In this document: positions 10,891 through 28,456 of the stretch, in pieces
How the letters are laid out: every line of letters begins with the position of its first letter
Position numbering within the stretch: the first letter of the stretch is position 1
Source of the DNA: Candidatus Bathyarchaeia archaeon
GTDB taxonomy: Archaea > Thermoproteota > Bathyarchaeia > Bathyarchaeales > Bathycorpusculaceae
Assembly: GCA_049516875.1 (NCBI GenBank)
Contig: JBEKSS010000001.1
Location: forward strand, 416,001 to 480,000
DNA: 64,000 bases
Direction of reading: 5' to 3'
Translations under genes and position numbers: made by a program
Notes under the pieces: model-generated
Seen by the model: only the letters and a program-made list of their open reading frames with translations
What the model was told of the DNA's origin: nothing
Database searches by the model: none

Positions 10891-11946
10891 TCAAAACAAG
10901 GCGTACGGATAAGATTGCCCGCTAGCGTGTAGTTTACCCTTAATTGGGATTTCATGCCCGCACACTGGACATCGCATGTCCTTCGTCAGATTCCATCGCG
11001 TTATCACGAAATTGTAACGTTTTATTAGGGTTTCATTGCAGTTCGGACAGTAAGTGTTTTCGCACGGATGCCCGGGCACGTTTCCAATGTAAACATAATT
11101 TAGGCTCGCATCCTTTGCAGCAACGTAAGCTTTCTCCAGAGTTTCAATAGGGGTTGCCGGGATAGTGGTTACCTGATAGTCCGGATGGAAACGCAGTAAG
11201 TGAAACGGCGTGTCCTTCCCAATTCCATCTCGGACCCAAACGGCAAGCTCTTTTATTCTCTCAATCGAATCCCCTGATTTGGGCACAATGAGGTTCGTGA
11301 TTTCTATGTGAATGTTGTTCCGCCTCATTTCCTTCAAGGCCTCAAAGATCGGTGCAACTGAAGGAACAGATGAAAAGGTCTTGTAGAATTCCGGATCTGC
11401 ACCACCTTTGAAGTCCACCGTCGCAGCGTCCAAGTATGGAGCTATGGTTTTCACTGCTTCTGGCGTCATGTAACCGTTTGTTACAAAAGTGTTGAAGAAC
11501 CCTACTTGGCGAGCAAGTTTGGCAGTGTCATATGCATATTCGAAGAAAATCGTTGGTTCAGTATACGTGTAGCTTATTCCTTCGCAGCCGTTGTCTCTAG
11601 CGGCTTTTATTACGTCTTCGGGAGGAAAGTGCTTGCCACTTATCTTCTTCTCTTGGCTTATCATCCAGTTGTCACAGAATTGACAGCGGAAGTTGCAGCC
11701 AACCGTGGCAATAGACATCACCAAGGCCCCTGGGTTAAAGTGGGCAAGCGGCTTTTTCTCAATGGGATCTATAGCTGCGGATATTGCCTTGGCGTAGTTG
11801 AGTGAAAAAAGAGTACCTCCTTCGTTCTTTCTTACTAAACAGAAGCCTGTACCGCCGTCATTTATGAGGCATTTTCGCGCGCAGAGATGACAGTTCACCT
11901 TTCTGTCTTGAAGTTTTTCGTAAAGCATTGCTTCATGAAGGGACAT
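10891..11946 (-). CDS. AmmeMemoRadiSAM-system radical SAM enzyme
   Basis: 'CHLCARKC', 'DPIEKKPL.HF.PG', 'GCNFRCQFCDNW', 'YTYTEPT', 'YVYIGNVPG'. Confidence 0.88.
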   Translation of the reverse strand: MSLHEAMLYEKLQDRKVNCHLCARKCLINDGGTGFCLVRKNEGGTLFSLNYAKAISAAIDPIEKKPLAHFNPGALVMSIATVGCNFRCQFCDNWMISQEKKISGKHFPPEDVIKAARDNGCEGISYTYTEPTIFFEYAYDTAKLARQVGFFNTFVTNGYMTPEAVKTIAPYLDAATVDFKGGADPEFYKTFSSVPSVAPIFEALKEMRRNNIHIEITNLIVPKSGDSIERIKELAVWVRDGIGKDTPFHLLRFHPDYQVTTIPATPIETLEKAYVAAKDASLNYVYIGNVPGHPCENTYCPNCNETLIKRYNFVITRWNLTKDMRCPVCGHEIPIKGKLHASGQSYPYALF

Positions 11947-11999
11947 TCAACCAGCCCTTTGACCGTTCATGTAAATCTTAACATGAGCAAGTATAAGAT

Positions 12000-12617
12000 C
12001 TATTCGCTTGTCTCTGAAACAGGGTTATCTTTGATTTCGAAAACTAATGGTGGAGACGTGGTTTTCACGTCCAATTCTATATCAAGCAAGCCTTCCAGAA
12101 AACCAGCCCAGATTTCAGATTCACTAATGAAAGGCGTTTTTATAAGGAGATATTTATCCTTCAGGTAGAAGTCGCCGAATCCTTGCACTCGCAAGCGCTT
12201 GAAAACGTCCGGCCATTTCTCACGGTTTGTGGTTTCTATTCCAGGTGCGGTTTCTATAGAAACTCTTGCGGCCTCGCCCATGTTCTTCCCGATCTCACGC
12301 CATTTTTCCATTGGAACATTATGAATCAGGATGTCAAGCAGCTCCGCATTCACGAAAGCTATCCGACTTATCCCACAATAATATTCGCCTGGAAAACGCC
12401 AATCATAAATCATCATGCTTCTGTAGACATCAAGCATTTTCGAAATAAGCGGCTTAATGCCCGGTTCTTTTCCCTCCTTAATCAAAGAGTCGATGAATTC
12501 TCTTTCGTCTTTCTCCAAGATTATTGTTGTCCTCTTGGCTGAGGTTTCGTTTTTCCTTATTAGTTCTTGGAGCTTTTTCTCTTTGTCTTCCTGCATAATC
12601 ATTATATTTTTCGGCAT
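12000..12617 (-). CDS. Hypothetical protein, possibly RHH plus V4R-like regulator
   Basis: 205-aa ORF co-directional with the radical SAM pair; N-terminal 'KRTTIIL' strand-helix pattern. Confidence 0.6.
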   Translation of the reverse strand: MPKNIMIMQEDKEKKLQELIRKNETSAKRTTIILEKDEREFIDSLIKEGKEPGIKPLISKMLDVYRSMMIYDWRFPGEYYCGISRIAFVNAELLDILIHNVPMEKWREIGKNMGEAARVSIETAPGIETTNREKWPDVFKRLRVQGFGDFYLKDKYLLIKTPFISESEIWAGFLEGLLDIELDVKTTSPPLVFEIKDNPVSETSE

Positions 12618-12803
12618 ATTTTATATAATTTGCGTTAGCACGGAAGCATATCAAAACATATCCACGCATCGGCACAGGCTATCCAGCATTGAGGACAGGT
12701 TATCACAGAAGGATCATTCTAGCTCACCACTAGCGCCATGAGCACTACGAGATAATGATTACAACCGAACGATTTTTAATAAGCCTAAGCATCTTTTAGA
12801 ATC

Positions 12804-12860
12804 GCCGATGACGAGCTCTTTTTGTCTGAAAAAGATGATGTACTCTAGGGTATCTGAGGC
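12804..12860 (+). ncRNA. C/D-box methylation guide sRNA; integration target of the element
   Basis: GCC stem, box C ATGACGA (12808-14), 11-nt guide, D' CTGA (12826-29), C' ATGATGT (12835-41), 12-nt guide, D CTGA (12854-57), GGC stem; TTTTAATAA ~25 nt upstream. Confidence 0.85.
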
Positions 12861-12861
12861 A
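12843..12861 (+). repeat. attL core, 19-bp direct repeat CTCTAGGGTATCTGAGGCA
   Basis: Identical copy at 28406-28424; ends about 50 bp before the integrase start. Confidence 0.9.
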
Positions 12862-12913
12862 ATTCTTTATAATATGTGAGGTATTTTATTCTTTTTCGCA
12901 GGAGAGAAGGCTT

Positions 12914-14167
12914 ATGGATTGGCGGCGCAGGTACGATTACGGCGTCTCGCGCCTGGAAGTCGACGCGTTCATCCAGGAGAACACGTGCGTTCAGCGGTTC
13001 TTGAAGAAGTATGCTGAGTCAACCAGGTACAATTTCAGCCGGTACCTCTGCATGTTCTTCAAGTGGCTACGAATTCGAAAAGGCCTGGAGCTGAGCCCAA
13101 GCGAGTTTCTGCAGATGCTCAGCGAAAAGCGTCAGGCTCATTCAGTTGAGGACCGGTGCTGGGGCAAAGACCTTGTCCTGGAATACACCCGTGACAATCC
13201 AGACATGAAAGGCAAGTCGCACAGTCTCCTGTACGGCGCCATGTTCAAGAGCGTGAACCTGTTCTGCAAGGCCCACGAAGTGGAGCTGGCCATCGCCCGC
13301 GGCGCGTATGGCGAGAAGAAAAAGAGGAAGTACCGGCCTGCCCCTTACACTGTCTCCTTAGCCAAGAAAGTCTTAGGCGTAGTCAACCAACGGGACCGGG
13401 CGATCTGCATGCTCGGTCTCCAGACTGGGCAAAGCATCCAGCAGGTGCTCGAGGAGATTAACGATCAGTACGAATACATCGTCCGGGAAATCTCTTCGGG
13501 AAAGCAAAGGATCCGCTTTGACTTCCCGGACGGGCGGAAGGGCAACGGTTTCAAGTATTACACGTTTTGCTCAGTTGACGCTATAACTGAGGTCCAGAAG
13601 TGGCTGCCTATCCGTAAGAAGTGGCTTGGGGACCGAAAGAGCCCGTACCTCTTCATTCAGCGGGATGGGTCGAAGATGACGCCTCAGGCTTGGCGGAGTC
13701 CGTTCCGGGAGCGCCTTGAACGTCATGGAGTTTACAAGGGTCCTTACTCCGTCGTTTTTCACATGTTCAGGAAAATCTTTGAGTCTGAGGCCAGTCCTCC
13801 AGATAGAGGCATTAGCAAAGATTATGCGCGGTTCATGATGGGCCACTCGGTTGATGAGGAAGAGCTTGATCAGTTGGATATTCCAGGGGGCACGTATGAT
13901 GAGGCGCCGTTTACGCATCCGGACGCAGTTGAAAAAGAATACGCGAAGCTGGAGCCCTACATCAACATCTACACCGGCAAAGCAGCCCACACGGAAGAAG
14001 GGGAAATCGGCGACATGCGGCGGCAGCTGAGCAGTCTAACTTCCCAAGTCGGCCAGCTGACGAGTACGTTGGAACTAATGCGAGTACCATTCCCAACGAA
14101 GGAAGCGATAGAGGGGCCAATAGCAGCTATGAAGAAAATAGCGCCAGAAAATGTCACCAAAAAATAG
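12914..14167 (+). CDS. Tyrosine recombinase/integrase
   Basis: HxxR 'HMFRK', 'FMMGH', catalytic Tyr in 'GGTYD', N-terminal SAM-like domain; adjacent to attL. Confidence 0.9.
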   Translation: MDWRRRYDYGVSRLEVDAFIQENTCVQRFLKKYAESTRYNFSRYLCMFFKWLRIRKGLELSPSEFLQMLSEKRQAHSVEDRCWGKDLVLEYTRDNPDMKGKSHSLLYGAMFKSVNLFCKAHEVELAIARGAYGEKKKRKYRPAPYTVSLAKKVLGVVNQRDRAICMLGLQTGQSIQQVLEEINDQYEYIVREISSGKQRIRFDFPDGRKGNGFKYYTFCSVDAITEVQKWLPIRKKWLGDRKSPYLFIQRDGSKMTPQAWRSPFRERLERHGVYKGPYSVVFHMFRKIFESEASPPDRGISKDYARFMMGHSVDEEELDQLDIPGGTYDEAPFTHPDAVEKEYAKLEPYINIYTGKAAHTEEGEIGDMRRQLSSLTSQVGQLTSTLELMRVPFPTKEAIEGPIAAMKKIAPENVTKK

Positions 14168-14374
14168 CGACTGTGGAAAGACAGGGCAAACTTGAACGAA
14201 AAAGGCCTACCTTAGCAGCGCAGAAACAGCCTCTTCCTCATAGTATATTACAGAAACTCAATGCATGTTGAAGAGCCATGGTAGAGACGGAGCAAAAGTG
14301 AAGCAGTTAGCCCAGCCTTGGCAACGCTGAAATGCCTAGTCATCCATTAACAAATATGGTGGCGCAATCCGCTA

Positions 14375-15427
14375 TTATTCCACACTTCGTTTTTGGCGGT
14401 AGCGTTTCCTATATCCATGGAACTTCTCCAAGATAGAAAAAACCCCATAGGAAAACAAAGCACCGAGGCCAAACAGAAAAACGCCAAACCAGTTCAGATC
14501 ATGCAATGCAAGTATACTCACATAGAAAAACAAAGCAGCGAAGCAGCCGATGAACATTCCTCCAATCATCGTAGCAACTGTCTTCTTTGCGCTTTCTGTT
14601 TTGGTATACTTTTCTTCCTCAAACTCAAGTTCCATTCCAAGATCTTTCGGAGTTATCCCTTGTTTCAAAATTCTCTCTGCAATCTTTGAACCTTCAGCCG
14701 TCAGAGAGTAACTGGCTTTGTGGGGTTCACGCCAGGCCCGGAAGATTCTTCCTCCAGTGATTCTCGCAATTCTGGTCTTGAATTTATCCATCTTTGTAAT
14801 CGGCTCAGGGCTAGTCTTCACAAACTCGGGGTAACGTTTCAATATCGTTTGAATCTCACGTGGCGATATTTTTCCTCGCAGAGACGAGTAAAGTTCCTCG
14901 GTGGTCGCCGTTTGTTCCGCGGGGGTACGAATTCCTAAAAGGAGAGAAGTGAAGAAGTAGAAGTAGCCGAATTTTTCAATGAATGACTTAAGATCTTCTT
15001 TGTTCATACCTTCGATGCTTCTTAGAATGTCTTCCGGATCTGGTTGCATTTCTGCCAAAGGATTATCTGATTTGTAAGCCCTCAAGAATTTGCCAACGAG
15101 TTGTGCATGCGATGTTTCCCTATAGCATTTGTAATTAGTCTTGAACTTTCCCAGGGCTGCTCTTTTTCCTTCAGGAGTCAGCGGGCTTCTCACGCCAACG
15201 TAGCTCGCTAACTTTAGCCCTTCGAGTTCCCTAAGAGTATCATCAACGAGACCTATGCTGATCTGTTGTCCGACTGGCCCTTGATTTCGAAGCTTCTGCT
15301 CAACGTCGATCGACGTCGCTTCTTTTTTGTCAATCAAAACGCCGAAGATTGCATATTTCTTTTCGTTTCTCAGGAGTCTGAAAGATCTGTACAACATCTC
15401 ATTCACACTTAATGACATATGAACCAT
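14375..15427 (-). CDS. Cargo protein: tandem wHTH-like regions plus two C-terminal TM helices
   Basis: 'DTLRELEGLKL', 'YSLTAEGSKIAE' wing motif; hydrophobic C-terminus. Confidence 0.65.
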   Translation of the reverse strand: MVHMSLSVNEMLYRSFRLLRNEKKYAIFGVLIDKKEATSIDVEQKLRNQGPVGQQISIGLVDDTLRELEGLKLASYVGVRSPLTPEGKRAALGKFKTNYKCYRETSHAQLVGKFLRAYKSDNPLAEMQPDPEDILRSIEGMNKEDLKSFIEKFGYFYFFTSLLLGIRTPAEQTATTEELYSSLRGKISPREIQTILKRYPEFVKTSPEPITKMDKFKTRIARITGGRIFRAWREPHKASYSLTAEGSKIAERILKQGITPKDLGMELEFEEEKYTKTESAKKTVATMIGGMFIGCFAALFFYVSILALHDLNWFGVFLFGLGALFSYGVFSILEKFHGYRKRYRQKRSVE

Positions 15428-15541
15428 TACCTCATACGCATATTCTCAAAAAGTCAGAATCACTATTTCTTGATTCTGAGTTTCTCAGAATTAAAGATTT
15501 CCCTGATTTGGCCCTAGGTACTACTTGTTGTCCGACCGAAA

Positions 15542-16327
15542 ATGAGGAAAACGATTGAAACGGAAAGGAAAGCAGATGCAGGGCTCGAATTAGACGAAGT
15601 GAACCAGGAGAGCATTGACGAACGGCTTCAAGAGATTGAGAAAAAACTGACGAGAATCGAGAAGGAATCGCGTGTTGGTGTAGACGATCAGCTTTTTTAC
15701 GGATTGGTTCTCTCTTTTCTCTTGTTTTTCTTGGCAGTTCCCCTGCCTGATGTTACAAACTTCCTCTTGGCCAGTTTCAAGTTTGATCTTAGTACCGCGT
15801 CAAACGTTGCTCTAGGTTTGAAGAATACTTTTGTCGCGCTCTTACTTCTGTCCGTTGTATCCAGGTACTATGCCGCAGTGAAGCCAGCTAAGGGATATCG
15901 TCTGTGGTCGATTGAATTCCTTTTTGTAGCGTTCGAGCTCTTTGTGTGGAATCTAACATTTGCCATAGCAAACCCACTTGTCCCACCACCAGGATACACT
16001 ATAGAAAACAGTTTCGTTTCTCTCTCAGCCGCATATGTTGTGCTCTTAGCAATCTTTTTGCTGATAGGAAAGTTTGTCGAGAGCAGAATCCTTGGATTCT
16101 ACGCAAAGAAAGAGCTCATTTCAAAGAAACATGCCCAACCGATTGCATCAGCCTTTTTCATATCTTTCTTAGGAACAGGAGGCCTTGTACTTCTGCTACA
16201 AGAAGTGGCCTTTTTTGATGCGAACACTCTGTTCAGTGCCTTAGATCTAAACATCGCTCTTTCACTTTCGTTCGCCTTCTGTTTTTCCGTTTACCTTATC
16301 TTCTTGCGAAAGAAGAAAGTCTTATGA
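15542..16327 (+). CDS. Cargo multi-pass membrane protein with N-terminal coiled coil
   Basis: 'IDERLQEIEKKLTRIEKE' followed by about 6 hydrophobic segments. Confidence 0.7.
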   Translation: MRKTIETERKADAGLELDEVNQESIDERLQEIEKKLTRIEKESRVGVDDQLFYGLVLSFLLFFLAVPLPDVTNFLLASFKFDLSTASNVALGLKNTFVALLLLSVVSRYYAAVKPAKGYRLWSIEFLFVAFELFVWNLTFAIANPLVPPPGYTIENSFVSLSAAYVVLLAIFLLIGKFVESRILGFYAKKELISKKHAQPIASAFFISFLGTGGLVLLLQEVAFFDANTLFSALDLNIALSLSFAFCFSVYLIFLRKKKVL

Positions 16328-16398
16328 AGATGGTTGCAATGCGACTTGGACCAAACGATCCCCTGCCATCCAAGTGTTAATGGGTATTAACAGATATT

Positions 16399-17184
16399 TC
16401 ATGGCTTGTCTGCTTCTTGGAGCAGATCCTCTTTTGTGTAAAGCTTGGAAGAAAGTGCCTTGTCAAGTGCTTTCCTGATATATTCACCGGCGATTCGTAC
16501 GTCGACTAAGGGTATCTCTTTTCTTCCGCCGTGGACGATGGCCCCTCTCAAATCATAGAACTTACCTATTTGTTTGGCCATTTCCTCTCTCTTCAATTCG
16601 TCAGGTTCTATGAAACTGGAGAGTCTACGTTTGAGATTGCTCTTGTAATTCCCCCCGGTTGAAAAGAGTGCTTCGGCGGCAATCGCCAAGTCGATAACAA
16701 CCTCTACTTGCATCCTACTACTGGCTTGCACAGCATTGTAGTAGTAGCGAAGAGCCAACCCAAGCTGTTCATCCATTATTCTTTGCATGTCTTTTTCCAG
16801 GTGAAGAAAGCGTTCCTTTGTCAAGAGGATTGATTCACTGAGTATGGATCCCATATCTTCATCGAGGACTGTGACTTTCCTGTAGTTAGTGAAAGAAACT
16901 CTTCTTCTCCCAAGCTCGTCCAATGCAGATATAGTTGTACCAATTCCGGAACGATAGGTGGCAGGTCGACCGGTCAATAGGGCATTCAATAAGAGAAAGA
17001 AATCCACGTATGAGCTGGCTGTGATGAAATAATCGGGGGCATCCTCGACACCAAAGTATGCAATGGCAGCTGACTCATTCTCGCCAAATACTTGTTCTAA
17101 GACAAATCTCTCGCAGACCTGAAGCTGACCTATTGTTGATGGCAGCAAGCTCCCTCTAATGAGAAATTCTACCTGTTTTAGCAT
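16399..17184 (-). CDS. HEPN (ApeA-like) domain protein, putative RNase or anti-virus effector
   Basis: 'LAIAAEALF' and Rx4H motif 'YDLRGAIVHG'. Confidence 0.75.
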   Translation of the reverse strand: MLKQVEFLIRGSLLPSTIGQLQVCERFVLEQVFGENESAAIAYFGVEDAPDYFITASSYVDFFLLLNALLTGRPATYRSGIGTTISALDELGRRRVSFTNYRKVTVLDEDMGSILSESILLTKERFLHLEKDMQRIMDEQLGLALRYYYNAVQASSRMQVEVVIDLAIAAEALFSTGGNYKSNLKRRLSSFIEPDELKREEMAKQIGKFYDLRGAIVHGGRKEIPLVDVRIAGEYIRKALDKALSSKLYTKEDLLQEADKP

Positions 17185-17334
17185 AGTATTTCAAAATATA
17201 TGATTGCCTATTTGAGCCTCATGCTTCAGGCAAGCCATGGACGCTACCTATGAGGTACGAAGCCCCAGCGCGCGCGTCAGAAAGTCTATTGCGCGCAACA
17301 GACTTTTCTTGAAAATGGACTCGTTTCAGACCTG

Positions 17335-18357
17335 CTACGGTGGCGATTTTTGGAAAACCAGCCCGCCAGTCAAACCCATGCAAGCCCACTCCAGACCGAT
17401 GGGTTGGTCTGCCGCTACGAAGTAGTCTCCATACATGGTGATTCCTCCTGCCTCCGCAGCATTCAGATATGCGGCGAGTCTAACGTCGTGGACGCTGGTG
17501 TCTCTCTGAGTTGTGTTCAACCCAGTTTTCTCTACTTTTAGGACTCCATCGACCCACAGCCTGATTATGCCCGCCGAAACATGCAGATAATCATAGACTT
17601 CCACACAGTACCAAGTGTTCGCCACAGGGTTGCTGGGGCTAGACTCTAAATAATTGACTCCGGCACCTTCCCAGTGGCTAAGGCCCCAGTAGAGGTTAGC
17701 GCCGCTTTTTTCTATTATCGGAAGTAGGTCCCAGGTTCCTGCACCGGCACCTACTAAGCCCCAGCCGGGACCGAACATATGAGGAGTCCCATCTGCAGTG
17801 GGCATTGCAGACAGCTTGATGTATGCCCTGACGTAGATTTCTGGCGCGACGGGTGAACCAAGGTCCTTGTATGCGCTGCCTCCATCGTTGAGGGCCGTTA
17901 GACCTGTTATTTTCATGTTGTAGATTCCATGATGGGGGTTTGCGTTCTCAACCGTTGTCACTCCGCTGTTCCAGTTATGGGTTCCCGTCCATGCGTTGAA
18001 GTTGCCGGACTCGAAACCGTCTGCGAAGACCACTGTGAAGAATTGTTTCAAGTAGGTTCGTTGCTGCGCTGAGATTCGTGGAAATACGAATTTGTGAACG
18101 TATTCTTCTAAGGCTTTCTTATCCTTTAGAACTCTAGGCGGAACACGAAGAGGAACCGTGAACCGTTCAAGACAGTAAGGACACATATGGCTGGCGCCAG
18201 ATACTTTTCTTCTGCATCTTGGGCAGATGTGGTCCCACATCGGCAGTCCGGAGCAGGAGTCACAACGCCAACAATCGGACCGCATCAACTTAACGGACCG
18301 CATCAACTTAACATAGGCGACACAATACAGTTTCAGCAGCCAATATGGCAGTCTCAA
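17335..18357 (-). CDS. Zn-ribbon plus ConA/LamG-like beta-sandwich protein, putative adhesin or receptor-binding protein
   Basis: GGAGG RBS before TTG; CPRC..CPYC; 'FADGFESGNFNAW', 'TWYCVEV', 'IRLWVDG'. Confidence 0.7.
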   Translation of the reverse strand: MRLPYWLLKLYCVAYVKLMRSVKLMRSDCWRCDSCSGLPMWDHICPRCRRKVSGASHMCPYCLERFTVPLRVPPRVLKDKKALEEYVHKFVFPRISAQQRTYLKQFFTVVFADGFESGNFNAWTGTHNWNSGVTTVENANPHHGIYNMKITGLTALNDGGSAYKDLGSPVAPEIYVRAYIKLSAMPTADGTPHMFGPGWGLVGAGAGTWDLLPIIEKSGANLYWGLSHWEGAGVNYLESSPSNPVANTWYCVEVYDYLHVSAGIIRLWVDGVLKVEKTGLNTTQRDTSVHDVRLAAYLNAAEAGGITMYGDYFVAADQPIGLEWACMGLTGGLVFQKSPP

Positions 18358-18378
18358 TTCAGGACCTCCATTTCTCGA

Positions 18379-18603
18379 CTACCACACTGCATTGAGGCTT
18401 CGCTGAGCATCTTCAAAAAGCAGCAAAGCAGACTTCAAGTAAGACTGCGCCTGCTCAAGCCTTCTTCTCTCGTCCGAAGAAAGAGGCAACGAGCCGATCA
18501 TGGAACACAGCTTCCTCGACATCTCGAGGACGTCCGCAACGTAGTCGCCGGGATATCTGTAGCCAAGAAGAGGCTTATTTCTGAGCCACTCTCTAAAATT
18601 CAT
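18379..18603 (-). CDS. Small helical hypothetical protein
   Basis: 74 aa, within the tightly packed minus-strand module. Confidence 0.6.
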   Translation of the reverse strand: MNFREWLRNKPLLGYRYPGDYVADVLEMSRKLCSMIGSLPLSSDERRRLEQAQSYLKSALLLFEDAQRSLNAVW

Positions 18604-18625
18604 ACGCGATGCCCCCGCGAGCTAC

Positions 18626-19108
18626 TTAAAAAGATATTCCTACCTCTCCTAAAACTTTGATGTACCCTGATGTTGGTCCCGGAGCGCCTGTCCATTCGAG
18701 ACTGTGCCACATTATTCCTGGTGTCTGCAGACTGAAAGGAATGTTTACCGCTTCTTCGTATCGAGTGGCACTGGCTTTTGCGGGTGCACTTTGAAAGAGC
18801 AGTTGCATGATCAAGTTTAAGCCTGCATCACCGCCTGAAGCAAAAGTAGGGTTGTCTTGCCAAAGCCGTAAAGTGTAGGTTACTGGGTTTGTGGGTTTCA
18901 TGTAGTACGTTATGTCACGTATGTTGCCCGTCCGCAAAGTAGGATGACTGATTTGAGTAGAGGGGACGTATTGACCAAACCAGCGAGTCGGCGGAGTATT
19001 GATGTCTTGACTTGTGTCGAAAAGGTGCCAGTCCCAACCGGTAACAGGATTATACGACCTAAACCAGAAAAGGTCAACCGGTCGTTTGGTGCCGATACTC
19101 AATGCCAT
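18626..19108 (-). CDS. Beta-rich hypothetical protein, possible jelly-roll virion component
   Basis: Abuts the upstream gene; aromatic/Thr/Pro-rich strands. Confidence 0.6.
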   Translation of the reverse strand: MALSIGTKRPVDLFWFRSYNPVTGWDWHLFDTSQDINTPPTRWFGQYVPSTQISHPTLRTGNIRDITYYMKPTNPVTYTLRLWQDNPTFASGGDAGLNLIMQLLFQSAPAKASATRYEEAVNIPFSLQTPGIMWHSLEWTGAPGPTSGYIKVLGEVGISF

Positions 19109-19675
19109 TCAACCAACTCCTACAGCATCCAAGTACAGAAGACCATTAAGAACTACGGCTGTCACGAAGACGGCGCTGACATTCAGCGGATACGTATATG
19201 GCGTGTTGGCCAATAGGTAATGTCGAACCCGAGTGGCACTGTTGAATTTGACCCAGCAGTTTTGGTTTGCCATCAACGATAACTGTGTTGCCGTGAACAA
19301 AGGTACTGTTGGGTCTGCCTGATGTGCATTGTATCCGATATCATACTCAGTTTCTATAAGCGTAAAAGGAACTTGCGCGTAGTCATCATAAATGAGCGAG
19401 GGAGATGTGGTAGGATTTGATTCCGCTTCCTCAACCGCCCCGCAGTTTCCGTCGACTACGGTCACGCTTTTATTTGCACGGATATCATTCAATGCATGAA
19501 CTCGATAAACACCGGGACTATTCTTTTCCACGTCGTATGGAAAATAGAAAATGAAGATTTCGCCCCAGTCACCTACCGCAATTGCTATCGCAGCTATGCC
19601 GATGCTCCCCACGGGGGGTTTTTGTTTGTAGCTCATTGCTTTTCCTCTCGTTCGCTCAAGTGCGCGCACGCGCAC
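19109..19675 (-). CDS. Beta-rich hypothetical protein, possible spike or vertex protein
   Basis: Abuts both neighbours; alternating beta pattern in the C-terminal ~80 aa. Confidence 0.6.
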   Translation of the reverse strand: MRVRALERTRGKAMSYKQKPPVGSIGIAAIAIAVGDWGEIFIFYFPYDVEKNSPGVYRVHALNDIRANKSVTVVDGNCGAVEEAESNPTTSPSLIYDDYAQVPFTLIETEYDIGYNAHQADPTVPLFTATQLSLMANQNCWVKFNSATRVRHYLLANTPYTYPLNVSAVFVTAVVLNGLLYLDAVGVG

Positions 19676-20188
19676 CTAAACGGTGAAATCAAACGGATAA
19701 GCTTTTAAGTCTCTTTCAGCCAAATCTGCTGCTGTTGGTTCTTTTTTGCTTCTTGCGCCCTGAAAATCAGGTTTTTGCACGACGTTTCTGATTTCGCCAT
19801 CCCAATGGTCTGAAGTAGTCTCGCCTCCTCTGAAACCGACGATCGCTTTTTGGTCCGTGGTGGCATTATAATTCAAAGCGCGGCCATGCGAAGTTAGCGA
19901 CGGTCTCGAGGGATCCGGAACCCATCGCTCCAAACTGGCGTCTCCATCGACTGATTTCAACTCATTTTGCAAAGGCTGAGGCTGCGTGGCGACTCCTTTT
20001 ACCTGAGGAACAGAATAACTTGCCCAGTCCAACGCAAAAGCCTCATTTGGATTGGCACCAAAAAGTGCAACTGGGCGTGGCTTTTGAGGTTCCAGCCTAG
20101 AAACTGACTGGCCTCTGCTCTGCACTCGGCTAATAGGAGCCTGGAGCCTGGCGCGGATCCGCGCTCGGACAATCTCTATCAATGACAT
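19676..20188 (-). CDS. Low-complexity protein ending in PFDFTV
   Basis: GGTGA RBS; Arg-rich N-terminus; Pro/Gln-rich. Confidence 0.65.
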   Translation of the reverse strand: MSLIEIVRARIRARLQAPISRVQSRGQSVSRLEPQKPRPVALFGANPNEAFALDWASYSVPQVKGVATQPQPLQNELKSVDGDASLERWVPDPSRPSLTSHGRALNYNATTDQKAIVGFRGGETTSDHWDGEIRNVVQKPDFQGARSKKEPTAADLAERDLKAYPFDFTV

Positions 20189-20198
20189 TCAAATCACC

Positions 20199-20426
20199 CT
20201 AAAAGGTGAAGTCCCATGGAAGGCGGGCGGTCTGCGGGGGTCTATACGTAAAGTCAAATTTTTCGGTGCCGCCAGGAATTCTAAATTCCATGTCGTAGGC
20301 TTCTTTTTGGCTTGCAGGCACGCGCTGGCTAAAATCGCAAATCTCGTGGTAGCCTGAAGGCATCCGCAGGTTTTTGACTGGGGGCTCGCTGGGAACGCTG
20401 ACCCACTTCCCGTTTACGTTCGCCAT
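20199..20426 (-). CDS. Small protein ending in PWDFTF; first gene of the module
   Basis: GGTGA upstream; shares the DFT motif with the next gene. Confidence 0.6.
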   Translation of the reverse strand: MANVNGKWVSVPSEPPVKNLRMPSGYHEICDFSQRVPASQKEAYDMEFRIPGGTEKFDFTYRPPQTARLPWDFTF

Positions 20427-20831
20427 GTGGCTCAAAATCTTTCACCTAATCATATTAGCGCGGTTTTGCTACTTAAACTTTGTTTTTTAGGCTCCGTCAA
20501 CGATTTGGACGGCGGGGCAAATCGAATTTTGTCAAAGAACCTTTTGAAACAGTCTGATTTAGGAATACGCCGTATTTGTTAATGGTTTTTGGCAAAAACT
20601 TAACTTGAACGTATTGTTAGTATCTTGTGAGGCGGAATGGGTGGGTAGACACAAAGTCCTCAATAAAGTCGGTGAGTTGCTGGTCAGTTTCATTGACGAG
20701 AACGGTATAAACCACGAATTAATCTCTATTTCGTATCAACAAACGTGCGCGCGCAGAAAAATCGATGCCTCTTTACTGTTTGTTCCCCCAGAGAACACAT
20801 GGAACTCGTGCGCGCGCCCGAAAATCCGAAA

Positions 20832-21174
20832 AATGGTTATGGGAAAACATGATACGCCCTTTGACAAGGTAATTGGTGAACTCGCCGCCTTCTACAATGA
20901 GAGGGGAAAGTGTATGATTGCTGTGAAGATGAAGCTTGGCGACGGTCGATTGGAAACATGGTTGAATCCGCAAATTCTGGAAAAACTGGGGGAGATAAAA
21001 GCAGCGAGGGACCGAGTCAGCGCGATCGCTAATAACGGCGGGACAGGGCTCAATTTCTTTTCGAAAACCCTGAGAATGCTGGAGGCGGACGCCATTGTCG
21101 ACTTTGGTGAAAGGCCAGAACGCTTGCAAATCGAGTTTGACAACTTTTCTAAGCCTTTTCCTTTGACCTGGTAG
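20832..21174 (+). CDS. Hypothetical protein (start uncertain; ORF open from 20605)
   Basis: Globular-looking C-terminal ~110 aa; convergent with the repressor gene. Confidence 0.5.
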
Positions 21175-21196
21175 TTCCTGAGCTTCTTTTCACTTT

Positions 21197-21688
21197 TCAG
21201 CCTTCTTCTGGCGATTCTGAAGGGTAGTTGAGGCTAAGCATTACCCGGGTTCTCGAGTCCTTCACAACTTCCTTGAGTTTCTTGGCGAAATCCGTTGTTA
21301 GAGCCTTGACCGCGCTCTCTTTCTGTTCTGTCAGTCCGTGCACGGCAACAGTTCCATTTGTTTCTGGCGCTACGTTCTTGAAAAGAAGTATGTCCAAATC
21401 AGCAAAGGAAAAAGAGGTTTTCAATTGTTGTTCCTGTTCCAGAGCCTTTTTATTCAAGACTCCTGGTGGTGTAAGAAAGTATCGCCGACGTTTGCCGACC
21501 AACATGAAGGTCGCCAGTCCCTGGTCCAGGATGGTTGGCAGGTAACAGGCCAAGGTCTTCTTGCTCATTTTTGCTTCTTTTGACAAGTCGTTGAAGCCTA
21601 ATGTTCTATCTTGTTCAGTCGCTTTTGCCAAGGCACCTAATACTCGCAGCGTTGTATCCTGTTGTCTCCATTTTCCCCATTTAGTCAT
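21197..21688 (-). CDS. Winged-helix repressor (ArsR/MarR-like)
   Basis: 'LGFNDLSKEAKMSKKTLACYL..LLDQGL' style HTH and 'RRRYFLTPPG' wing; divergent from the replication operon. Confidence 0.75.
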   Translation of the reverse strand: MTKWGKWRQQDTTLRVLGALAKATEQDRTLGFNDLSKEAKMSKKTLACYLPTILDQGLATFMLVGKRRRYFLTPPGVLNKKALEQEQQLKTSFSFADLDILLFKNVAPETNGTVAVHGLTEQKESAVKALTTDFAKKLKEVVKDSRTRVMLSLNYPSESPEEG

Positions 21689-21709
21689 TCTTATCTCCCT
21701 GCATGAATT

Positions 21710-21756
21710 GGTTTACTTATTTACAATTTAGTTCCTTATGTAAACCGTTTATATAA
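21710..21756. promoter_or_regulatory. Divergent promoter/operator: GGTTTAC..GTAAACC inverted repeat plus bidirectional TTTATATAA
   Basis: Arms at 21710-16 and 21740-46; TATA at 21748-56; lies between divergent regulators. Confidence 0.6.
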
Positions 21757-21791
21757 GCCTTTGCGTAAAGTCTTGACTAAGGTCGTGAAGT

Positions 21792-22022
21792 ATGTCCGAA
21801 AACGAACTTGACGATAAACATGTGATTCTGAAAAGATACAAGCTACGCGTCGCAGGCGCTCAGGGTGCTACAACGGAGATCAGCTTGCCTCCCGACGCAC
21901 TTGCCCGCGAGGCTCGAAGGCTTGGCATAGACGAGAGAGAAGCGGCCAAGAAGCTTATCGGAGTGTGGAAATTCAATTCGTTTCACGGTTTGCATTTAGA
22001 TTTTGAAGTGAAGCAAGGATGA
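21792..22022 (+). CDS. Small AbrB-like DNA-binding protein in a Cro-equivalent position
   Basis: 'YKLRVAG...TTEISLPP' swapped-hairpin-like pattern; first gene of the rightward operon. Confidence 0.55.
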   Translation: MSENELDDKHVILKRYKLRVAGAQGATTEISLPPDALAREARRLGIDEREAAKKLIGVWKFNSFHGLHLDFEVKQG

Positions 22023-22285
22023 TTAAAACAGAAAAAGAGTCCGAGAGCCCTGCAAGGCTCGCGGAGAAAAGCTACGACTTCAAAAGAACATTGTCTTTTC
22101 TAACTGATAGACTTTGCGGTGTCAAGGTTCTTCATGATATAGATTTTCTAAGTTGTGGCAATTGCGTGAGTTGGGCCGGTCGATGCTTGCGAGGAGCCCG
22201 ATACAAGATTGCAGCCGATAGCCCTTGCAGCGAGTTTATTCCAAAAAACCAAGCGACTTTCTCAGCTTTGAGGGTGTCCAGATGA
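22019..22285 (+). CDS. Small Cys-rich hypothetical protein
   Basis: 'CGNCVSW..RC...PC..F'; ATGA overlaps with both neighbours. Confidence 0.6.
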   Translation: MIKTEKESESPARLAEKSYDFKRTLSFLTDRLCGVKVLHDIDFLSCGNCVSWAGRCLRGARYKIAADSPCSEFIPKNQATFSALRVSR

Positions 22286-22764
22286 GCCAGATTTCTCTGG
22301 ACCAGGCTGCCGTCTACACCAAGCTGTGCGAACTTGACGCTTTGAAGAAACTTGTTGAAGAGCAACGCGCAACGATTGAGGCTTTGAAGGAACGGATCAT
22401 CAAACTGGAAGCCGATGCTGGCGTCACAGAAACAGGTCTGAGCGCAATTGCCGGTGCACTGGAGCTTCGCGGGATCCTCAAAAATGGCGAAGCGGTTGAA
22501 GCTTCCGAAAAAGAGCCCATGGTAGCCGTGAAAGAAGAAACCTTCACATGCTTGACGTTCGAGGACCAGCGGGGTTCGAAGCTCGGGGAGTTTTCAGTCG
22601 CATACAGAGAGAATAATGTCATCGATAAGTGGACGTCAGCCTACAACGTTCTGCAGCAGAGCAATGCTACAATAAAGAGCCGTTACCACGGACCAGGGTA
22701 CGTTCATTCTTACTGGTTGTATGCTGAAAATAGAATCTACCGCCAAAGATTGAAGGGGAGCTGA
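22282..22764 (+). CDS. Coiled-coil hypothetical protein
   Basis: Start MSQI overlaps the upstream stop (ATGA); heptad region 'LKKLVEEQRATIEALKERIIKLE'. Confidence 0.65.
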   Translation: MSQISLDQAAVYTKLCELDALKKLVEEQRATIEALKERIIKLEADAGVTETGLSAIAGALELRGILKNGEAVEASEKEPMVAVKEETFTCLTFEDQRGSKLGEFSVAYRENNVIDKWTSAYNVLQQSNATIKSRYHGPGYVHSYWLYAENRIYRQRLKGS

Positions 22765-22838
22765 CAAAAACGGGCAAACACATTGTCAAAGAATTCACGT
22801 TCGAAAGGCCTAACAAAGAGAATCGACAACTGGAAATC

Positions 22839-25625
22839 GTGAGGGTTGAGGTTGGCCTGGAGAAGGTCGCGCGCGGTTACGAGTTCTATGTTGGAGAGAA
22901 GCGCGTAAAGGTGGGCAGTGTCGAAGCAGATGATTTAGACGCGAAAGCTGTGGCTGAGCAGCTTGGGCTTCCTGTGCCTCCGGATCCTGTAGGCTCTCTT
23001 CATCAAGAAGGGAGCAGGACGATATCAAAAGCAGAGTCATTCGTGTATAAGTTGGCTCTGATATATCGGCTCAGTCCCGAGAAAAAGCTCACCATGCCGG
23101 ACATTACTTGTTCGAGTATTGACGGTCGGAAAGGCGTTTCGATAGATCCAGGCGTTTTTCTGTTGGTTGAGAAGGACAAGTCATGGCGCCTCCAGCTGAT
23201 TGACACTGAAGAGAAATTTGATAGTAGTGAGAATCGTTCGCTCACAGCGGGGTTTCATGTTGGCAGTCTGGACGAATTGAAGAAGGAGGCCGTGTTGAAA
23301 GAAGCGTTGAAACTCTGTTTCAAAACGCAGCTTGTTCCCCTTATCGTTGCCAGGATTGTTGAAGTGATTCAGGCTGAGCCTCAAGAAACGTGGACGGTAT
23401 GCGAAAAAGAGCAGCCAGAGGAAGAAGGGGGACAGGTGAATATTCCCGTTGAACTGCCTACGAGCGAGGCGGTGAGCGACGTTTTCGCCTACCAAGGTGA
23501 CAGAAAATTTAACAGTCGAATCCAGATTAAAAGTTTCGGTTTTCCTCAGAGCAGGTTTCTTGAGCTGGAGTTCTCCTGCAATCGAAGCCGCGAAGACCTG
23601 TGCGCTATATGCACGTTCGAAGGCTACAAGATGAGTCTGAAAGAAAACTTTGATGCTTCAGCCTTCGCCACGTATTTTGACAGCGACAGTCCAAAGGACG
23701 CGTGGAAGATTCTGAAGCAGAACGGGACGGTAGCGGGCTGCGATAAGATTTCAGTTAAAGGTGAAAATGAAACCGCCGTAACCCAAGCCATAGTTAGCGA
23801 TCGACGTGGAAACGAGGCTAAAGCATGGTTTGTCTACGACCATGAAAAATGTGACCTTCGCACATCCCCGAACTGGATATACAGTCAAGGATGGCTTTGC
23901 CGGGGACTGAAGGGACGAATAGGCGTACTGGTAACGGAGTTTCAAGCGGAAAGCGAGGTTATGATGCCTAAGGCAGAAACCGTTGAAGCCTCCAAAGAGT
24001 ATCTGCGTTCAATCAGGACTGAAGACGAAGCCACAGTCTGGAAGGTCGCCAGGGCTCTGCATAAGAAGTCCAACTTGAAAGGATTAGAGGCGACACGCGG
24101 GTTTGTCTCAGACTTGCTCTTCATAGGAGCTCCTGTCTGGACAAAGACTCCGGAAGGCCCTCAAATAATCGGCATGACAAGCCTGGAGTGTGGAGAATCA
24201 ACAACAGCGAAAAGCCAGCGAGAACGAGAAGTCGTTGATTGGCTGAAAGCAGGCAAATATGAGAGTGGAAGAAAAACATCTGCAGGCTTGGCTGCCGGCG
24301 CTGAAAAGATTGAGGGAATAGGCTGGGTTATGCGGAAAGGCCTCTTGCCCTCAGCCGACCTTTCATTCATAATTCTGGACAACATGTTCCCGCACGCGCT
24401 CGACGAACACATTGAAAGTAGACGTAACGGAATCATAGAGCTTTCAACGATCAAGTCATGTGAACTGTGGGGACGGACCAGGCTTAAACTGTTAAGCAAT
24501 CCTGCTATGCCCTTCGACCAGCACCTGCACAAGTGCGTAGCCCTCAAAGTCTACGATTCCAAATTCATAGCACGCTTCACTTTCGTAACCTTCACCTACG
24601 GAGAGAAACCTGACGTCAGATACGATCCGAAGATTGAAGAGTTGTCTGAGAAAGACCAAGCAGTCCTCAACGCAGCGTGGAACGTGCTGAGATGGAACCT
24701 CAGCCAAGAAGTGACTTACACGGTTCCAGTGAAACTATGGCCTAAAATAATGGAGTACAGCAAGCAGCTGGAGCTCACCTTCGGAAACGAGGAGATCCCA
24801 CTTTTCCTCAGGGCAAACCCGCACAAGGTAGCGACGTTAGCCTATTGTTTCGCACTCTTTGAGGGAACCGAACCCACCGAAAGGCACGTTGAGCAAGCCA
24901 ACCAATGGCTGACAGAATGCGGCGTCGACATGGAAATGGACGAATTCACCGAAGAATGGAAAAAAGAACACACACTTTCTGAGGAAGAGTACTCAGGTCT
25001 GAAGCTGGCGATTGAGGCTCAGACATCTTTCGATATGAAAGAGCACGGCGGGGAACTTAGAGACTCGGAGCTCTTCAAGTTTTTCGAATACATAGCGAGA
25101 CGTGGACAGGCTCAAATGGAAGAGATAGCTGCAGCAGCTAGTCTTTCTGATCAGACTGTGAAAAGACGGGCTAAAGAGATGAAGGGGTTGGGTCTGATAC
25201 AGAGTTCGATCAGGGGCTATTTTTTCACTCCAAAGGGCGTCCGCTTCTACAAACGATGGTTACGTGGCCTCAATGGCCCTAATGGCCTCACTTTTAAGGG
25301 TCACAAGCCTTTTGGCGGCGGAAAAGTGCCTGAGACCCCTAAAACCGAGGCCAATGAGGCCATTAAGGCCACGACTGATTTTCTATGGACAAAGGTGCCG
25401 GCAGCTGAGAAGTGCGAGCTATGCGGCCAGTTTGCTGTTGAGTTTGAAATCAACGATACCCGGCAACGGCAGACCGTGAGACGCTGTGAGCCCTGTTTCC
25501 ACAAGATTCGCAGTGAGTACAGAAACGCGGTCTGGAAGGAGACATTGGAACAAGAGCCTAAGAAGGATGATGGATTAGTCAGGGGCTCGGTTGCGGTTCT
25601 CAACGGCACATCTGGGAGGCCATGA
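22839..25625 (+). CDS. Divergent MCM-family helicase with C-terminal wHTH and Zn finger
   Basis: Walker A 'GESTTAKSQ', 'TSAGLAAG', 'GWVMRKGLLPSADLSFIILDN', arginine finger 'FIARF', C-terminal CELC..CEPC. Confidence 0.8.
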   Translation: MRVEVGLEKVARGYEFYVGEKRVKVGSVEADDLDAKAVAEQLGLPVPPDPVGSLHQEGSRTISKAESFVYKLALIYRLSPEKKLTMPDITCSSIDGRKGVSIDPGVFLLVEKDKSWRLQLIDTEEKFDSSENRSLTAGFHVGSLDELKKEAVLKEALKLCFKTQLVPLIVARIVEVIQAEPQETWTVCEKEQPEEEGGQVNIPVELPTSEAVSDVFAYQGDRKFNSRIQIKSFGFPQSRFLELEFSCNRSREDLCAICTFEGYKMSLKENFDASAFATYFDSDSPKDAWKILKQNGTVAGCDKISVKGENETAVTQAIVSDRRGNEAKAWFVYDHEKCDLRTSPNWIYSQGWLCRGLKGRIGVLVTEFQAESEVMMPKAETVEASKEYLRSIRTEDEATVWKVARALHKKSNLKGLEATRGFVSDLLFIGAPVWTKTPEGPQIIGMTSLECGESTTAKSQREREVVDWLKAGKYESGRKTSAGLAAGAEKIEGIGWVMRKGLLPSADLSFIILDNMFPHALDEHIESRRNGIIELSTIKSCELWGRTRLKLLSNPAMPFDQHLHKCVALKVYDSKFIARFTFVTFTYGEKPDVRYDPKIEELSEKDQAVLNAAWNVLRWNLSQEVTYTVPVKLWPKIMEYSKQLELTFGNEEIPLFLRANPHKVATLAYCFALFEGTEPTERHVEQANQWLTECGVDMEMDEFTEEWKKEHTLSEEEYSGLKLAIEAQTSFDMKEHGGELRDSELFKFFEYIARRGQAQMEEIAAAASLSDQTVKRRAKEMKGLGLIQSSIRGYFFTPKGVRFYKRWLRGLNGPNGLTFKGHKPFGGGKVPETPKTEANEAIKATTDFLWTKVPAAEKCELCGQFAVEFEINDTRQRQTVRRCEPCFHKIRSEYRNAVWKETLEQEPKKDDGLVRGSVAVLNGTSGRP
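25263..25373. repeat. Imperfect ~110-bp palindrome with three 9-bp iteron-like units per arm (candidate origin)
   Basis: Left arm GTGGCCTCAATGGCCCTAATGGCCTCACTTTTAAGGGTC matches the reverse complement of the right arm at about 41/51 positions; 8-nt loop. Confidence 0.75.
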
Positions 25626-25707
25626 CTGTGGAAACGCAAAGACCCCTCCCTAAACAACCTCAGACATTCTTCTCGTGTTTTGAGTCCATTCGAGGTGACA
25701 TACAAGA

Positions 25708-26004
25708 ATGAAGAAATCCAAACTAGAACATGAACCCTTGGAACAGGGGTATGGAAAAGGCGCAGAGGAGCGAAAAATCGTCCCCTCGTCTGTCTTACGA
25801 CGGAAGAAGCAGAAGGTCGAGAAACTATGGTTGATTCAATACTTCGAGGTGCGCAGACATTCCAGAACTTTGTATCTGCCGTTGGATCCGACAACTGTGC
25901 GAATTCACGATATCGAACGCGGCGACATTGTCAAAGCTGTTCTTCTGGCACTTCGCAAAGCGCCACGTCCAGACGAGCCCATAAAGGACCCAGGAGAGCT
26001 CTAA
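25708..26004 (+). CDS. AbrB/MazE-like DNA-binding protein
   Basis: 'VRRHSRTLYLPLDP..VRIHDIERGDIVK'; GAGGTGA RBS. Confidence 0.65.
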   Translation: MKKSKLEHEPLEQGYGKGAEERKIVPSSVLRRKKQKVEKLWLIQYFEVRRHSRTLYLPLDPTTVRIHDIERGDIVKAVLLALRKAPRPDEPIKDPGEL

Positions 26005-26006
26005 AC

Positions 26007-27828: not shown

Positions 27829-27919
27829 CACTACATCTACTGGCTCTTATTCAACGGCATACTCAACCCCACTAGAACAGACTAGGCGCTGCCAGACCAG
27901 AAATTTTATGAAAAACCGA

Positions 27920-28424: not shown

Positions 28425-28456
28425 GAAAAAGATTCCAACACCTCAAGAAGCGCGCG

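Follow-up and report, generated by a model that had tools for sequence, protein, structure and literature searches.

The window analysed here is a stretch of 64,000 nt from a peat-soil Candidatus Bathyarchaeia archaeon (assembly GCA_049516875.1, contig JBEKSS010000001.1, positions 416,001–480,000 of the forward strand), in which the gene of a 57-nt C/D box small RNA (sRNA), designated sRNA-A, lies directly upstream of a gene encoding a divergent tyrosine recombinase (integrase). The last part of the sRNA gene is repeated 15.5 kb further on. The DNA enclosed by the two copies is very probably a mobile element which was integrated by a tyrosine recombinase at the 3′ end of the host sRNA gene, with the gene being rebuilt at the left attachment site (attL). 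The window was compared with 41 related genomes by flank matching, 30 genomes were scanned for sRNA-A with a regular expression and 301 genomes of the order were searched for the integrase. Logan contigs from four public peat or wetland runs (X4, X8, X9 and X17) were compared with window positions 11500–29500.

The C/D box sRNA gene and its predicted rRNA target

The initial annotation described a C/D sRNA of 57 nt with boxes C, D′, C′ and D, a GCC/GGC stem and an upstream TATA element, and we found all of these at the expected places. The order of the parts is GCCG-AUGACGA-GCUCUUUUUGU-CUGA-AAAAG-AUGAUGU-ACUCUAGGGUAU-CUGA-GGC. The assignment draws on the reading of the boxes, the alignment to the Rfam family RF00095, the orthologues, the pairing with 23S rRNA and the presence of fibrillarin and Nop5 genes in the host. 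The features are as follows:

12765–12782, forward strand: promoter-like element CCGAACGATTTTTAATAA of the TFB recognition element (BRE)/TATA type, 22–39 nt before the 5′ end of sRNA-A; it contains the TATA-like TTTTTAATAA at 12773–12782
12804–12860, forward strand: gene of the C/D box sRNA-A, 57 nt
12804–12807, forward strand: 5′ GCCG
12808–12814, forward strand: box C, AUGACGA, with one deviation from RUGAUGA at position 5
12815–12825, forward strand: D′ spacer GCUCUUUUUGU, 11 nt
12826–12829, forward strand: box D′, CUGA
12830–12834, forward strand: linker AAAAG, 5 nt
12835–12841, forward strand: box C′, AUGAUGU
12842–12853, forward strand: D guide ACUCUAGGGUAU, 12 nt
12854–12857, forward strand: box D, CUGA
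12858–12860, forward strand: 3′ stem GGC, which pairs with GCC in a 3-bp terminal stem

The GAU bulge between the GCC/GGC stem and the first GA of box C would, in our reading, produce a kink-turn geometry. Both the stem and the 3-nt bulge are invariant among 22 orthologues; with no variation there is no covariation signal. An Rfam search of the whole window at gathering scores gave no match. In a permissive search, 12804–12860 aligned in full length to the Pyrococcus C/D family snoPyro_CD (RF00095, model positions 1–58 of 58) with 26.8 bits and an E value of 5.8e-4, and the 23 weaker permissive matches belonged mostly to C/D families too. The host is a mesophilic peat archaeon, in whose 2.43-Mb genome the snoPyro_CD model gave only two candidates: sRNA-A as the best match (E 0.00185) and a weaker one. 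Two proteins of the guide ribonucleoprotein are encoded as well: the genes of fibrillarin (PF01269, 321 bits) and Nop5 (Nop domain PF01798, 256 bits) stand side by side on contig C6.

In 20 of the 30 related genomes a strict regular expression detected sRNA-A in syntenic position, flanked by the same pair of host genes; it gave nothing in the remaining 10, which are mostly members of other families or cases of contig ends. Together with two further lysogens (G058 and G248, described below) these genomes make up the set of 22 orthologues. Across this set box C reads AUGA[AC]GA, box D′ CUGA and box C′ [AG]UGAUGN, whereas box D occurs in three forms (CUGA in 19, CGGA in two and CCGA in one). The D spacer is always exactly 12 nt long and follows the pattern N-C-[UC]-C-U-[AG]-GGGUAU, of which GGGUAU is invariant. 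A box of the AACCGAAC..TTTTTA or TTAATA type is found upstream at equal spacing in all 22.

The target suggested in the initial annotation, UACCCUAGGG of 23S rRNA, proved to be present in the host's own partial 23S contig within the sequence ...AAAAAUUACCCUAGGGAUAACAGGCU... The D guide of sRNA-A pairs with the host 23S over 10 bp immediately 5′ of GGGAUAACAGGC. In the alignment to E. coli rrlH, GGGAUAAC is located at 2445 and the paired segment at 2438–2447, and the 23S nucleotide that faces the fifth guide nucleotide ahead of box D (N+5) is the equivalent of E. coli 2441. The expected complementarity between D guide and 23S was observed in all five genomes for which both sRNA-A and the 23S site are available, with 10–11 contiguous pairs and at most one wobble. 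The duplex is perfectly Watson-Crick over 10 bp in G012 and contains one G-U pair in G000, and guides of the CCCUGGGG type pair with either target variant, UACCCUAGGG or UACCCCGGGG, with one wobble each. The target core CCCUAGGG is palindromic; guide and target hence share sequence, which leaves the pairing unaffected. According to our arithmetic, about 0.01 Watson-Crick matches of 10 nt are expected between a 12-mer and approximately 4.5 kb of rRNA. These data suggest that sRNA-A guides 2′-O-methylation at the equivalent of E. coli 2441, beside the peptidyl-transferase ring.

Several points weigh against the view that the integration target is an sRNA gene. The Rfam score of sRNA-A stays below the gathering score (26.8 against 45 bits), and of its two terminal boxes, which are both present, box C carries the mismatch at position 5. 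The D′ spacer drifts in sequence and in length among the orthologues (9–11 nt, below the norm of about 12 nt), and the D′ guide is an orphan with no convincing target in rRNA or tRNA and with G-U-rich matches only. When G-U pairs were freely allowed, 90 of 500 shuffled D guides also reached 10 pairs on the partial 23S. Because this shuffle test is a weak control, the case for the target rests on the conservation and on the perfect 10-bp match in G012; for the D′ guide the same test (316 of 500) was uninformative. For the four guides of sRNA-A and of the second sRNA described below, no target was detected among 26 tRNAs predicted by ARAGORN, which possibly misses intron-containing tRNAs. No RNA run containing the locus is listed, and transcription, processing and methylation of sRNA-A are predictions. 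The host genome itself is a metagenome-assembled genome (MAG), 97.5% complete and with 5.4% contamination, in which the 23S gene is truncated to a partial copy on one contig. The 16S rRNA gene was found neither there nor in four of the five relatives searched.

Two contigs of this MAG of about 5 kb each, C18 and C19, have an outlying G+C content (0.59 and 0.39, compared with approximately 0.47 elsewhere) and may be the source of the contamination estimate.

The missing RNA run, the score below gathering, the orphan D′ guide and the weak shuffle test would all suit a different explanation, in which the conserved 57-nt segment is an intergenic regulatory or fossil att site that merely resembles a C/D sRNA, so that the integrase would use a conserved intergenic attB. 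However, 22 genomes retain the four boxes, the terminal stem and a promoter-like box at constant distances, even though the D′ spacer and the flanks vary; in five of five genomes the guide follows the 23S site; the genome possesses fibrillarin and Nop5 genes; and the second target, used by sister integrases, is also C/D-like, with its N+5 position on C1402 of 16S rRNA. We consider an intergenic site of this kind improbable.

The integrated element, its empty sites and its relatives

The two ends of the element are marked by the exact 19-bp direct repeat CTCTAGGGTATCTGAGGCA, the longest direct repeat within 11000–30000; for 64 kb, our arithmetic gives a chance expectation of about 0.01 exact pairs of 19-mers. 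As was stated in the initial annotation, this att core spans nearly all of the D guide together with box D and the 3′ stem and recurs at 28406–28424. The features of the integrated region are:

12843–12861, forward strand: attL core, consisting of 11 of the 12 D-guide nucleotides, box D, GGC and one extra A; the same core forms attP in viral contigs
12862–28405, no strand assigned: integrated mobile element, 15,544 bp between the cores, without a counterpart in four of four congeners and in X8 and X4 contigs
12862–12913, forward strand: left (P′) arm of the element with the TATA-like TTATAATATG ahead of the integrase gene, a putative promoter or arm site
12914–14167, forward strand: gene of the divergent tyrosine recombinase (integrase), 417 aa, which starts 53 nt after attL
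28378–28388, forward strand: CCCTTACTACC, a possible arm-type motif of the right (P) arm, 18–28 nt before the attR core
28406–28424, forward strand: attR core, representing the original 3′ end of the host sRNA gene in its displaced position; beyond it comes the host flank which in congeners directly adjoins the sRNA

We propose that attP of the element carries a copy of the last 19–20 bp of the gene, in which the larger part of the D guide is followed by box D and the 3′ stem. An exchange inside this shared stretch would insert the element immediately after the sRNA gene. The 3′ end of the sRNA would thereby be rebuilt from element DNA at attL, beside the integrase gene, and the original 3′ end would be displaced to attR, 15.5 kb off. 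This is in agreement with the earlier claim that integration regenerates an intact sRNA: an intact gene at the integrase side and a 3′ fragment at the far end were also found in G058 and G248 and, at a second sRNA, in G303. Strand exchange would occur inside AGGGTATC, the 3′ half of the guide, to judge from an inverted repeat and from a polymorphism in G058, both described below.

The left flank with sRNA-A matches 32 of the 41 related genomes and the right flank 33. In all four genomes of the same genus (G001–G004) the two matches overlap by 18–19 nt, which corresponds to an empty site: sRNA-A is directly followed by the sequence found after 28424 in the window. The junction ...CTGAGGCA-GAAAAAG, proposed in the initial annotation as the signature of an empty site, thus occurs in each of these congeners as well as in contigs of X8 and X4. 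One X8 contig passes directly from 12842 to 28406, leaving out 15,563 nt, and 19 letters at the joint agree with either side; in one X4 contig position 12861 is followed by GAAAAAGATTC, identified as the right flank. Since empty joints are seen in X4 and X8 contigs and other X4 contigs cover the whole element with both junctions, occupied and empty forms coexist in nature.

The summed contig depth in X4 amounted to approximately 194–197 over the element and 260–390 over the flanks, which fits a mixed occupied and empty population, contig depth not being equal to the share of cells. Joints in X9 and X17 which skip 15.85 kb land at 28709–28722; they were set aside as probably originating from relatives with a different spacer after the sRNA.

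The sequence ahead of the attR core is 83% identical to sRNA-A over 35 nt, and the sRNA gene could be imagined to belong to the element, with the copy at attR being a decayed second gene. Complete sRNA-A genes with their promoter are, however, located between the same host genes in genomes without the element, free viral genomes hold only the 19-bp core without boxes C, D′ and C′, and neither G058 nor G248 shows the extended similarity at attR. We take the similarity to be due to chance and an origin of the sRNA gene from the element to be extremely unlikely.

Insertion after the host gene was also observed in other genera. The integrase search in the 301 genomes of the order gave matches in 24 (E ≤ 1e-5). 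In G058 (79% identity) and G248 (73%, truncated at the end of a contig), the nearest matches and both from other genera, the integrase gene directly follows the sRNA-A orthologue. A second copy of the core is placed on a separate contig in both, with non-sRNA DNA before it and a host-like flank after it. The G058 attL reads ...GGGTATCTGAGGCG, compared with ...GGGTATCGGAGGCA at attR (L106, L110), and the host box D CGGA has been replaced by an element-supplied CUGA, the 3′ stem likewise coming from the element. Because box D and the 3′ stem at attL are derived from the element and the host box D was CGGA, the exchange in G058 is placed within CTCTAGGGTATC. The suggestion of the initial annotation that an imperfect attP could rewrite the guide RNA was thus borne out for box D in this genome, but not for the guide, the letters of which did not differ in any attP seen.

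When IMG/VR was scanned with the integrase alignment, 12 loci were obtained. In six of them the core CTCTAGGGTATC[TC]GAGGC is located just upstream of an integrase gene whose product is 76–78% identical to ours, and the DNA before the core is unrelated to boxes C, D′ and C′. An attP junction, with a core flanked by non-sRNA sequence, was hence found in related viral contigs but not for the element of the window: neither its attP nor its circular junction was detected in contigs of X4, X8, X9 and X17. Of the other six loci, one (L137, 49% identity) stands after the second sRNA, four are cut less than 40 nt from the gene and one shows nothing. Among five IMG/VR records which were checked, four possess one core copy and the fifth has two at its very ends; three of the five have direct terminal repeats according to the IMG/VR classification. 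The record G319 (37,157 bp, direct terminal repeats, CheckV 100% complete, one core copy) encodes a large terminase (4e-92), a portal protein (2e-36), an HK97-type capsid protein and a baseplate hub, and because of these genes we regard it as a temperate tailed virus.

At its second position box D has U, C or G, and this variation is seen in host sRNA-A genes and viral attP sites alike. CCGA occurs at the empty site of G021 and in the virus L134, and CGGA in G005, G248 and the original gene of G058. This polymorphism may record the exchange of copies between viruses and hosts.

Elements of the att sites outside the core are partly conserved. The left-arm pattern AAT..TTATA.TATGTG.GGTG is kept in attL of G058 and G248 and in five attP sites. 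Stretches of the form [CT][AT]TAC[TC] were noticed by eye, with no statistic attached, about 18–30 nt before the core at attR of G058 and G248 and in four attP sites (L130, L132, L133 and L134); occurring in otherwise unrelated right ends, this motif is a possible arm-type binding site. In three of five attP sites and at attR of G000, AGGGTATC is flanked by an imperfect inverted repeat, GCCTCT/[TC]GAGGC, which is only suggestive of core binding sites.

The integrase, its second RNA target and the mobility of the element

The 417-aa open reading frame (ORF) following attL matches phrog_1 (E 2.3e-5), whereas its profile reached no better than E 0.048 among PDB sequences, with Tn1549 Int. Its AlphaFold2 (AF2) model has a mean predicted local distance difference test (pLDDT) score of 76. 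Foldseek gave seven matches at E ≤ 0.001, namely XerA, XerH and lambda Int, the best of which was archaeal XerA (4a8e, E 2e-5), and the ranks listed below these, which are tyrosine recombinases too, included IntI, Tn1549 Int, XerD, Cre and SSV1 Int, with modest template-modelling (TM) scores of 0.3–0.5. Residues K209 (RKGNG), H283 and R286 (HxxR), H311 (MGH) and Y328 (GGxYD) are invariant in eight of eight homologues. Taken together, the phrog_1 match, the conserved motifs and the AF2/Foldseek fold point to a tyrosine recombinase with a two-domain fold. Two observations speak against this assignment: the PF00589 score of 22.3 bits does not reach the cut-off of 27.1, and the first arginine of the canonical set is not recognisable, as the expected TGxR stretch reads LQTGQ. 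The named phage records yielded a single, distant match to the integrase, in Geoglobus ahangari pleomorphic virus 1 (21% identity).

With so divergent an integrase, which falls under the Pfam cut-off and the activity of which is predicted, the island might have been acquired by homologous recombination between chance repeats or with a transposase target duplication, the integrase gene being incidental. Yet a target duplication would not be as long as an exact repeat of 19 bp, three lysogens (the host genome, G058 and G248) and six viral contigs carry this core next to the genes of related integrases, target specificity tracks the integrase clades and the predicted fold is that of a tyrosine recombinase. 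An acquisition unrelated to the integrase can hardly be credited.

In a midpoint-rooted IQ-TREE phylogeny of 25 integrases, nine rows associated with sRNA-A or with its attP form a clade with support 100/100 and nine rows associated with the second target, sRNA-B, form another (100/98). The two clades are united (100/100) apart from seven rows without a recognised RNA target. As several rows are close kin (L084, L091 and L093, the last of only 65 aa), the rows are not independent events, and two rows in each clade have no upstream sequence. The topology suggests that target specificity follows the integrase clades. The seven-row third group, in which no sRNA target was recognised, indicates that not all relatives of the integrase target sRNAs and to this extent counts against a general rule. 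The regular expressions and permissive Rfam searches found no RNA gene adjoining L086/L139, L089, L092, L094, L095 and L140, nor the weaker homologues L066–L068, L070 and L071. L086 points in the same direction, as host homology there stops about 85 nt before the integrase gene, at an apparent protein-gene end.

Integrases with 43–49% identity to that of the window adjoin a different C/D-like RNA, sRNA-B, which ends in ...GACUCGACGGGCGAA-CUGA-CA. Four such loci came from the search of the order and seven from the scan of genome contigs, some of them from the same genomes. The initial annotation had proposed to look for integrase homologues beside C/D sRNAs; they do occur there, at sRNA-A in two further genomes and, for the sister clade, at sRNA-B. 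The form of the second RNA is GGAUGAUGA ... GAGAGUCA ... GUGAUNU ... CUGA, with a length of approximately 65 nt. It is encoded by a single-copy host gene, which carries no insertion in the genome from which the window comes (contig C11, approximately 89040–89110, reverse strand). Its 3′ motif was found in 22 of 41 relatives (L147–L169), compared with two matches of a reversed control pattern. Both guides are conserved, the C′–D spacer of about 15 nt is longer than usual, the D′ box is CAGA, UAGA or CUGA, and Rfam aligns the RNA weakly to sR2 (21.1 bits). In G031 there are two full copies of sRNA-B on different contigs.

Because the host MAG and four of five relatives gave no 16S sequence, the D guide of sRNA-B was paired against 16S rRNA of G012. 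It forms 9 bp with CGCCCGUCG, with N+5 at E. coli C1402, which we take to be a well-known conserved 2′-O-methylated cytidine. The D′ guide of sRNA-B matches 23S UGACUCUC over 8 bp.

Integration at sRNA-B could be followed to its far end in G303, in which a 17-bp repeat lies 28,120 bp from attL. Its congener G231 has a complete sRNA-B followed by a homologue of the G303 far flank, both flanks being homologous, and thus an empty site. In G312 a second att copy was found only as an 11-bp candidate at 17.2 kb, no copy was found within 40 kb in G316, and the contigs of G314 and G315 end before one could show. In the IMG/VR locus L137 the DNA that separates the end of sRNA-B from the integrase gene contains a tRNA-like T-arm fragment, GGGATTCGAACCCC, possibly left over from another att site.

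The other genes of the 15.5-kb element are mostly orphans, and Pfam and PHROG matches among its ORFs were limited to the integrase, a DUF6011 protein and a weak helicase:

22839–25625, forward strand: 928-aa ORF, candidate MCM-like replicative helicase, perhaps a primase fusion, a lead only
26159–26599, forward strand: DUF6011 protein, 146 aa (PF19474, 28.7 bits against a cut-off of 26.6)

The nearest ESM Atlas clusters of the 928-aa protein are viral MCM and MCM-Toprim proteins (score 0.92, TM 0.59). It matches the helicase family phrog_10371 (E 9.6e-4) and, among PDB sequences, Mcm6 (E 0.84), with no Pfam match, and is probably an MCM-like helicase. DUF6011 has a homologue in the sRNA-B element of L090 (5034–5390, 44% identity, E 1e-27). 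Besides the integrase it is the sole gene of the element that is common to an element targeting sRNA-B, and it may belong to a shared module for integration or replication. At 18276–18311, inside a 340-aa ORF (17335–18357, reverse strand), CGGACCGCATCAACTTAA forms a perfect tandem duplication of 18 bp with two copies.

ARAGORN predicted no real tRNA near the element. Its call "tRNA-???" at 53775–53874 (100 nt, with a four-letter anticodon) is probably false or an unusual intron-bearing gene, as the Rfam search of the window at gathering score gave no tRNA.

We infer that the 15.5-kb element is currently mobile. Against this stand the lack of capsid, portal and terminase genes recognisable by Pfam or PHROG, the integrase as the only gene in common with the related complete viruses, and the negative search for a circular junction in the four runs. 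The first two of these indicate that the element may be plasmid-like or defective. Integration could be genuine and the element nevertheless a defective remnant or a satellite unable to move alone, which we regard as rather unlikely but worth serious attention. Both cores are still identical over 19 bp and the integrase ORF is intact with its motifs kept; an MCM-like replication gene is present, and occupied and empty sites were both found in run X4.

Small RNA genes as integration targets

Integration into the 3′ ends of tRNA and transfer-messenger RNA (tmRNA) genes is a textbook rule on which island-finding software is based. Among integrases of this type, an intact int gene beside attL is found in bacterial P4-type islands and of archaeal elements of the pNOB8 type or "type II" (SNJ2, pTN3). 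The system described here is similar in that attB is the 3′ part of a small, stable and highly conserved RNA gene, attP carries this part and thereby restores the gene at attL, next to the integrase gene, and the far end is recognisable by the displaced fragment. It differs in the target, a C/D box guide of 57–65 nt, in the core, which is made up of guide, box D and terminal stem, and in an integrase that remains under the Pfam cut-off.

Other targets have been described. The covered text of a review of archaeal integration lists tRNA genes, protein genes and intergenic sites and contains no mention of sRNA, small nucleolar RNA (snoRNA) or non-coding RNA (ncRNA) (PMC8371274). In bacteria, phage phiEf11 is reported to have its attB within ffs/4.5S RNA (PMC12540744), and the RNA targets in the ProBord survey were tRNA in 74.8%, ncRNA in 13.5% and tmRNA in 11.7% (PMC13626063). 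The use of a conserved small non-tRNA RNA gene by a site-specific integrase is common to these bacterial phages and our element, whereas their targets are bacterial RNAs of other classes; the main text of the ProBord survey has no mention of snoRNA or sRNA. In integration of the SSV type (type I), attP is inside the int gene, which is split (PMC3119797, PMC7253208). The integrase of the window is likewise an archaeal virus integrase with the tyrosine recombinase fold, and SSV1 Int was among its structural matches; in contrast to the SSV type, its gene stays whole and attP is 53 nt upstream of it.

The target RNA itself resembles archaeal C/D sRNAs (RF00095; Sulfolobus and Pyrobaculum sR; PMC6009581) in the order of boxes, spacers of about 12 nt and a short terminal stem, and also in its guide to the conserved rRNA core and in having one conserved and one drifting guide. 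It departs from them in the sub-gathering score, in A or C at position 5 of box C and in a D′ spacer of 9–11 nt. Pyrobaculum sRNA genes undergo duplication, rearrangement and mobility resembling that of miniature inverted-repeat transposable elements (MITEs) (Lui et al. 2018, PMC6009581), and the terms "integrat" and "virus" do not occur in that study. Searches for C/D sRNA att sites were negative within PMC8371274, PMC10848311, PMC13626063, PMC6009581, PMC3119797 and PMC7994747. More generally, no description of C/D sRNA genes as att sites was found in the full-text collection searched, from which subscription journals are mostly absent; supplementary tables (PMC13626063; Krupovic et al. 2019, PMC6563490) might list some. 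Papers on TIGR-Tas and on the Haloferax volcanii genome that mention both box sRNAs and an integrase were judged to have no bearing on the question, and another such paper dealt with brown-alga transposons. The principle of targeting small RNA genes is well known, and in the literature searched the C/D sRNA appears to be a new class of target.

Because their guides must match invariant rRNA segments, sRNA-A and sRNA-B are conserved across genera like tRNA genes, which makes them good targets. The three lysogens have CUCUAGGG-type guides, and most other genera have CCCUGGGG. This distribution is consistent with, but no proof of, a host-range limit set by the guide. As attP must match the host guide, the sequence also provides a link between virus and host.

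Lysogeny might even edit the modification of host rRNA, in that a virus-supplied box D and 3′ stem would alter the assembly or stability of the sRNA–protein complex and hence methylation of 23S or, for the sister clade, of C1402 in 16S rRNA. We consider this unlikely. If true, it would be a lysogenic conversion acting on rRNA modification, and the variants of box D would reflect repeated exchange between virus and host.

The findings add a class of target, the archaeal homologues of snoRNAs, which is used by an integrase clade with at least two target specificities. They concern Bathyarchaeia, which are among the most abundant and still poorly cultured archaea, and give exact boundaries of proviruses in this group that tRNA-based tools miss. 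They also provide independent evolutionary evidence for both C/D sRNAs as real and conserved genes, in a lineage where hardly any guide RNAs can be recognised, and raise the question of whether a box D supplied by a prophage alters rRNA methylation.

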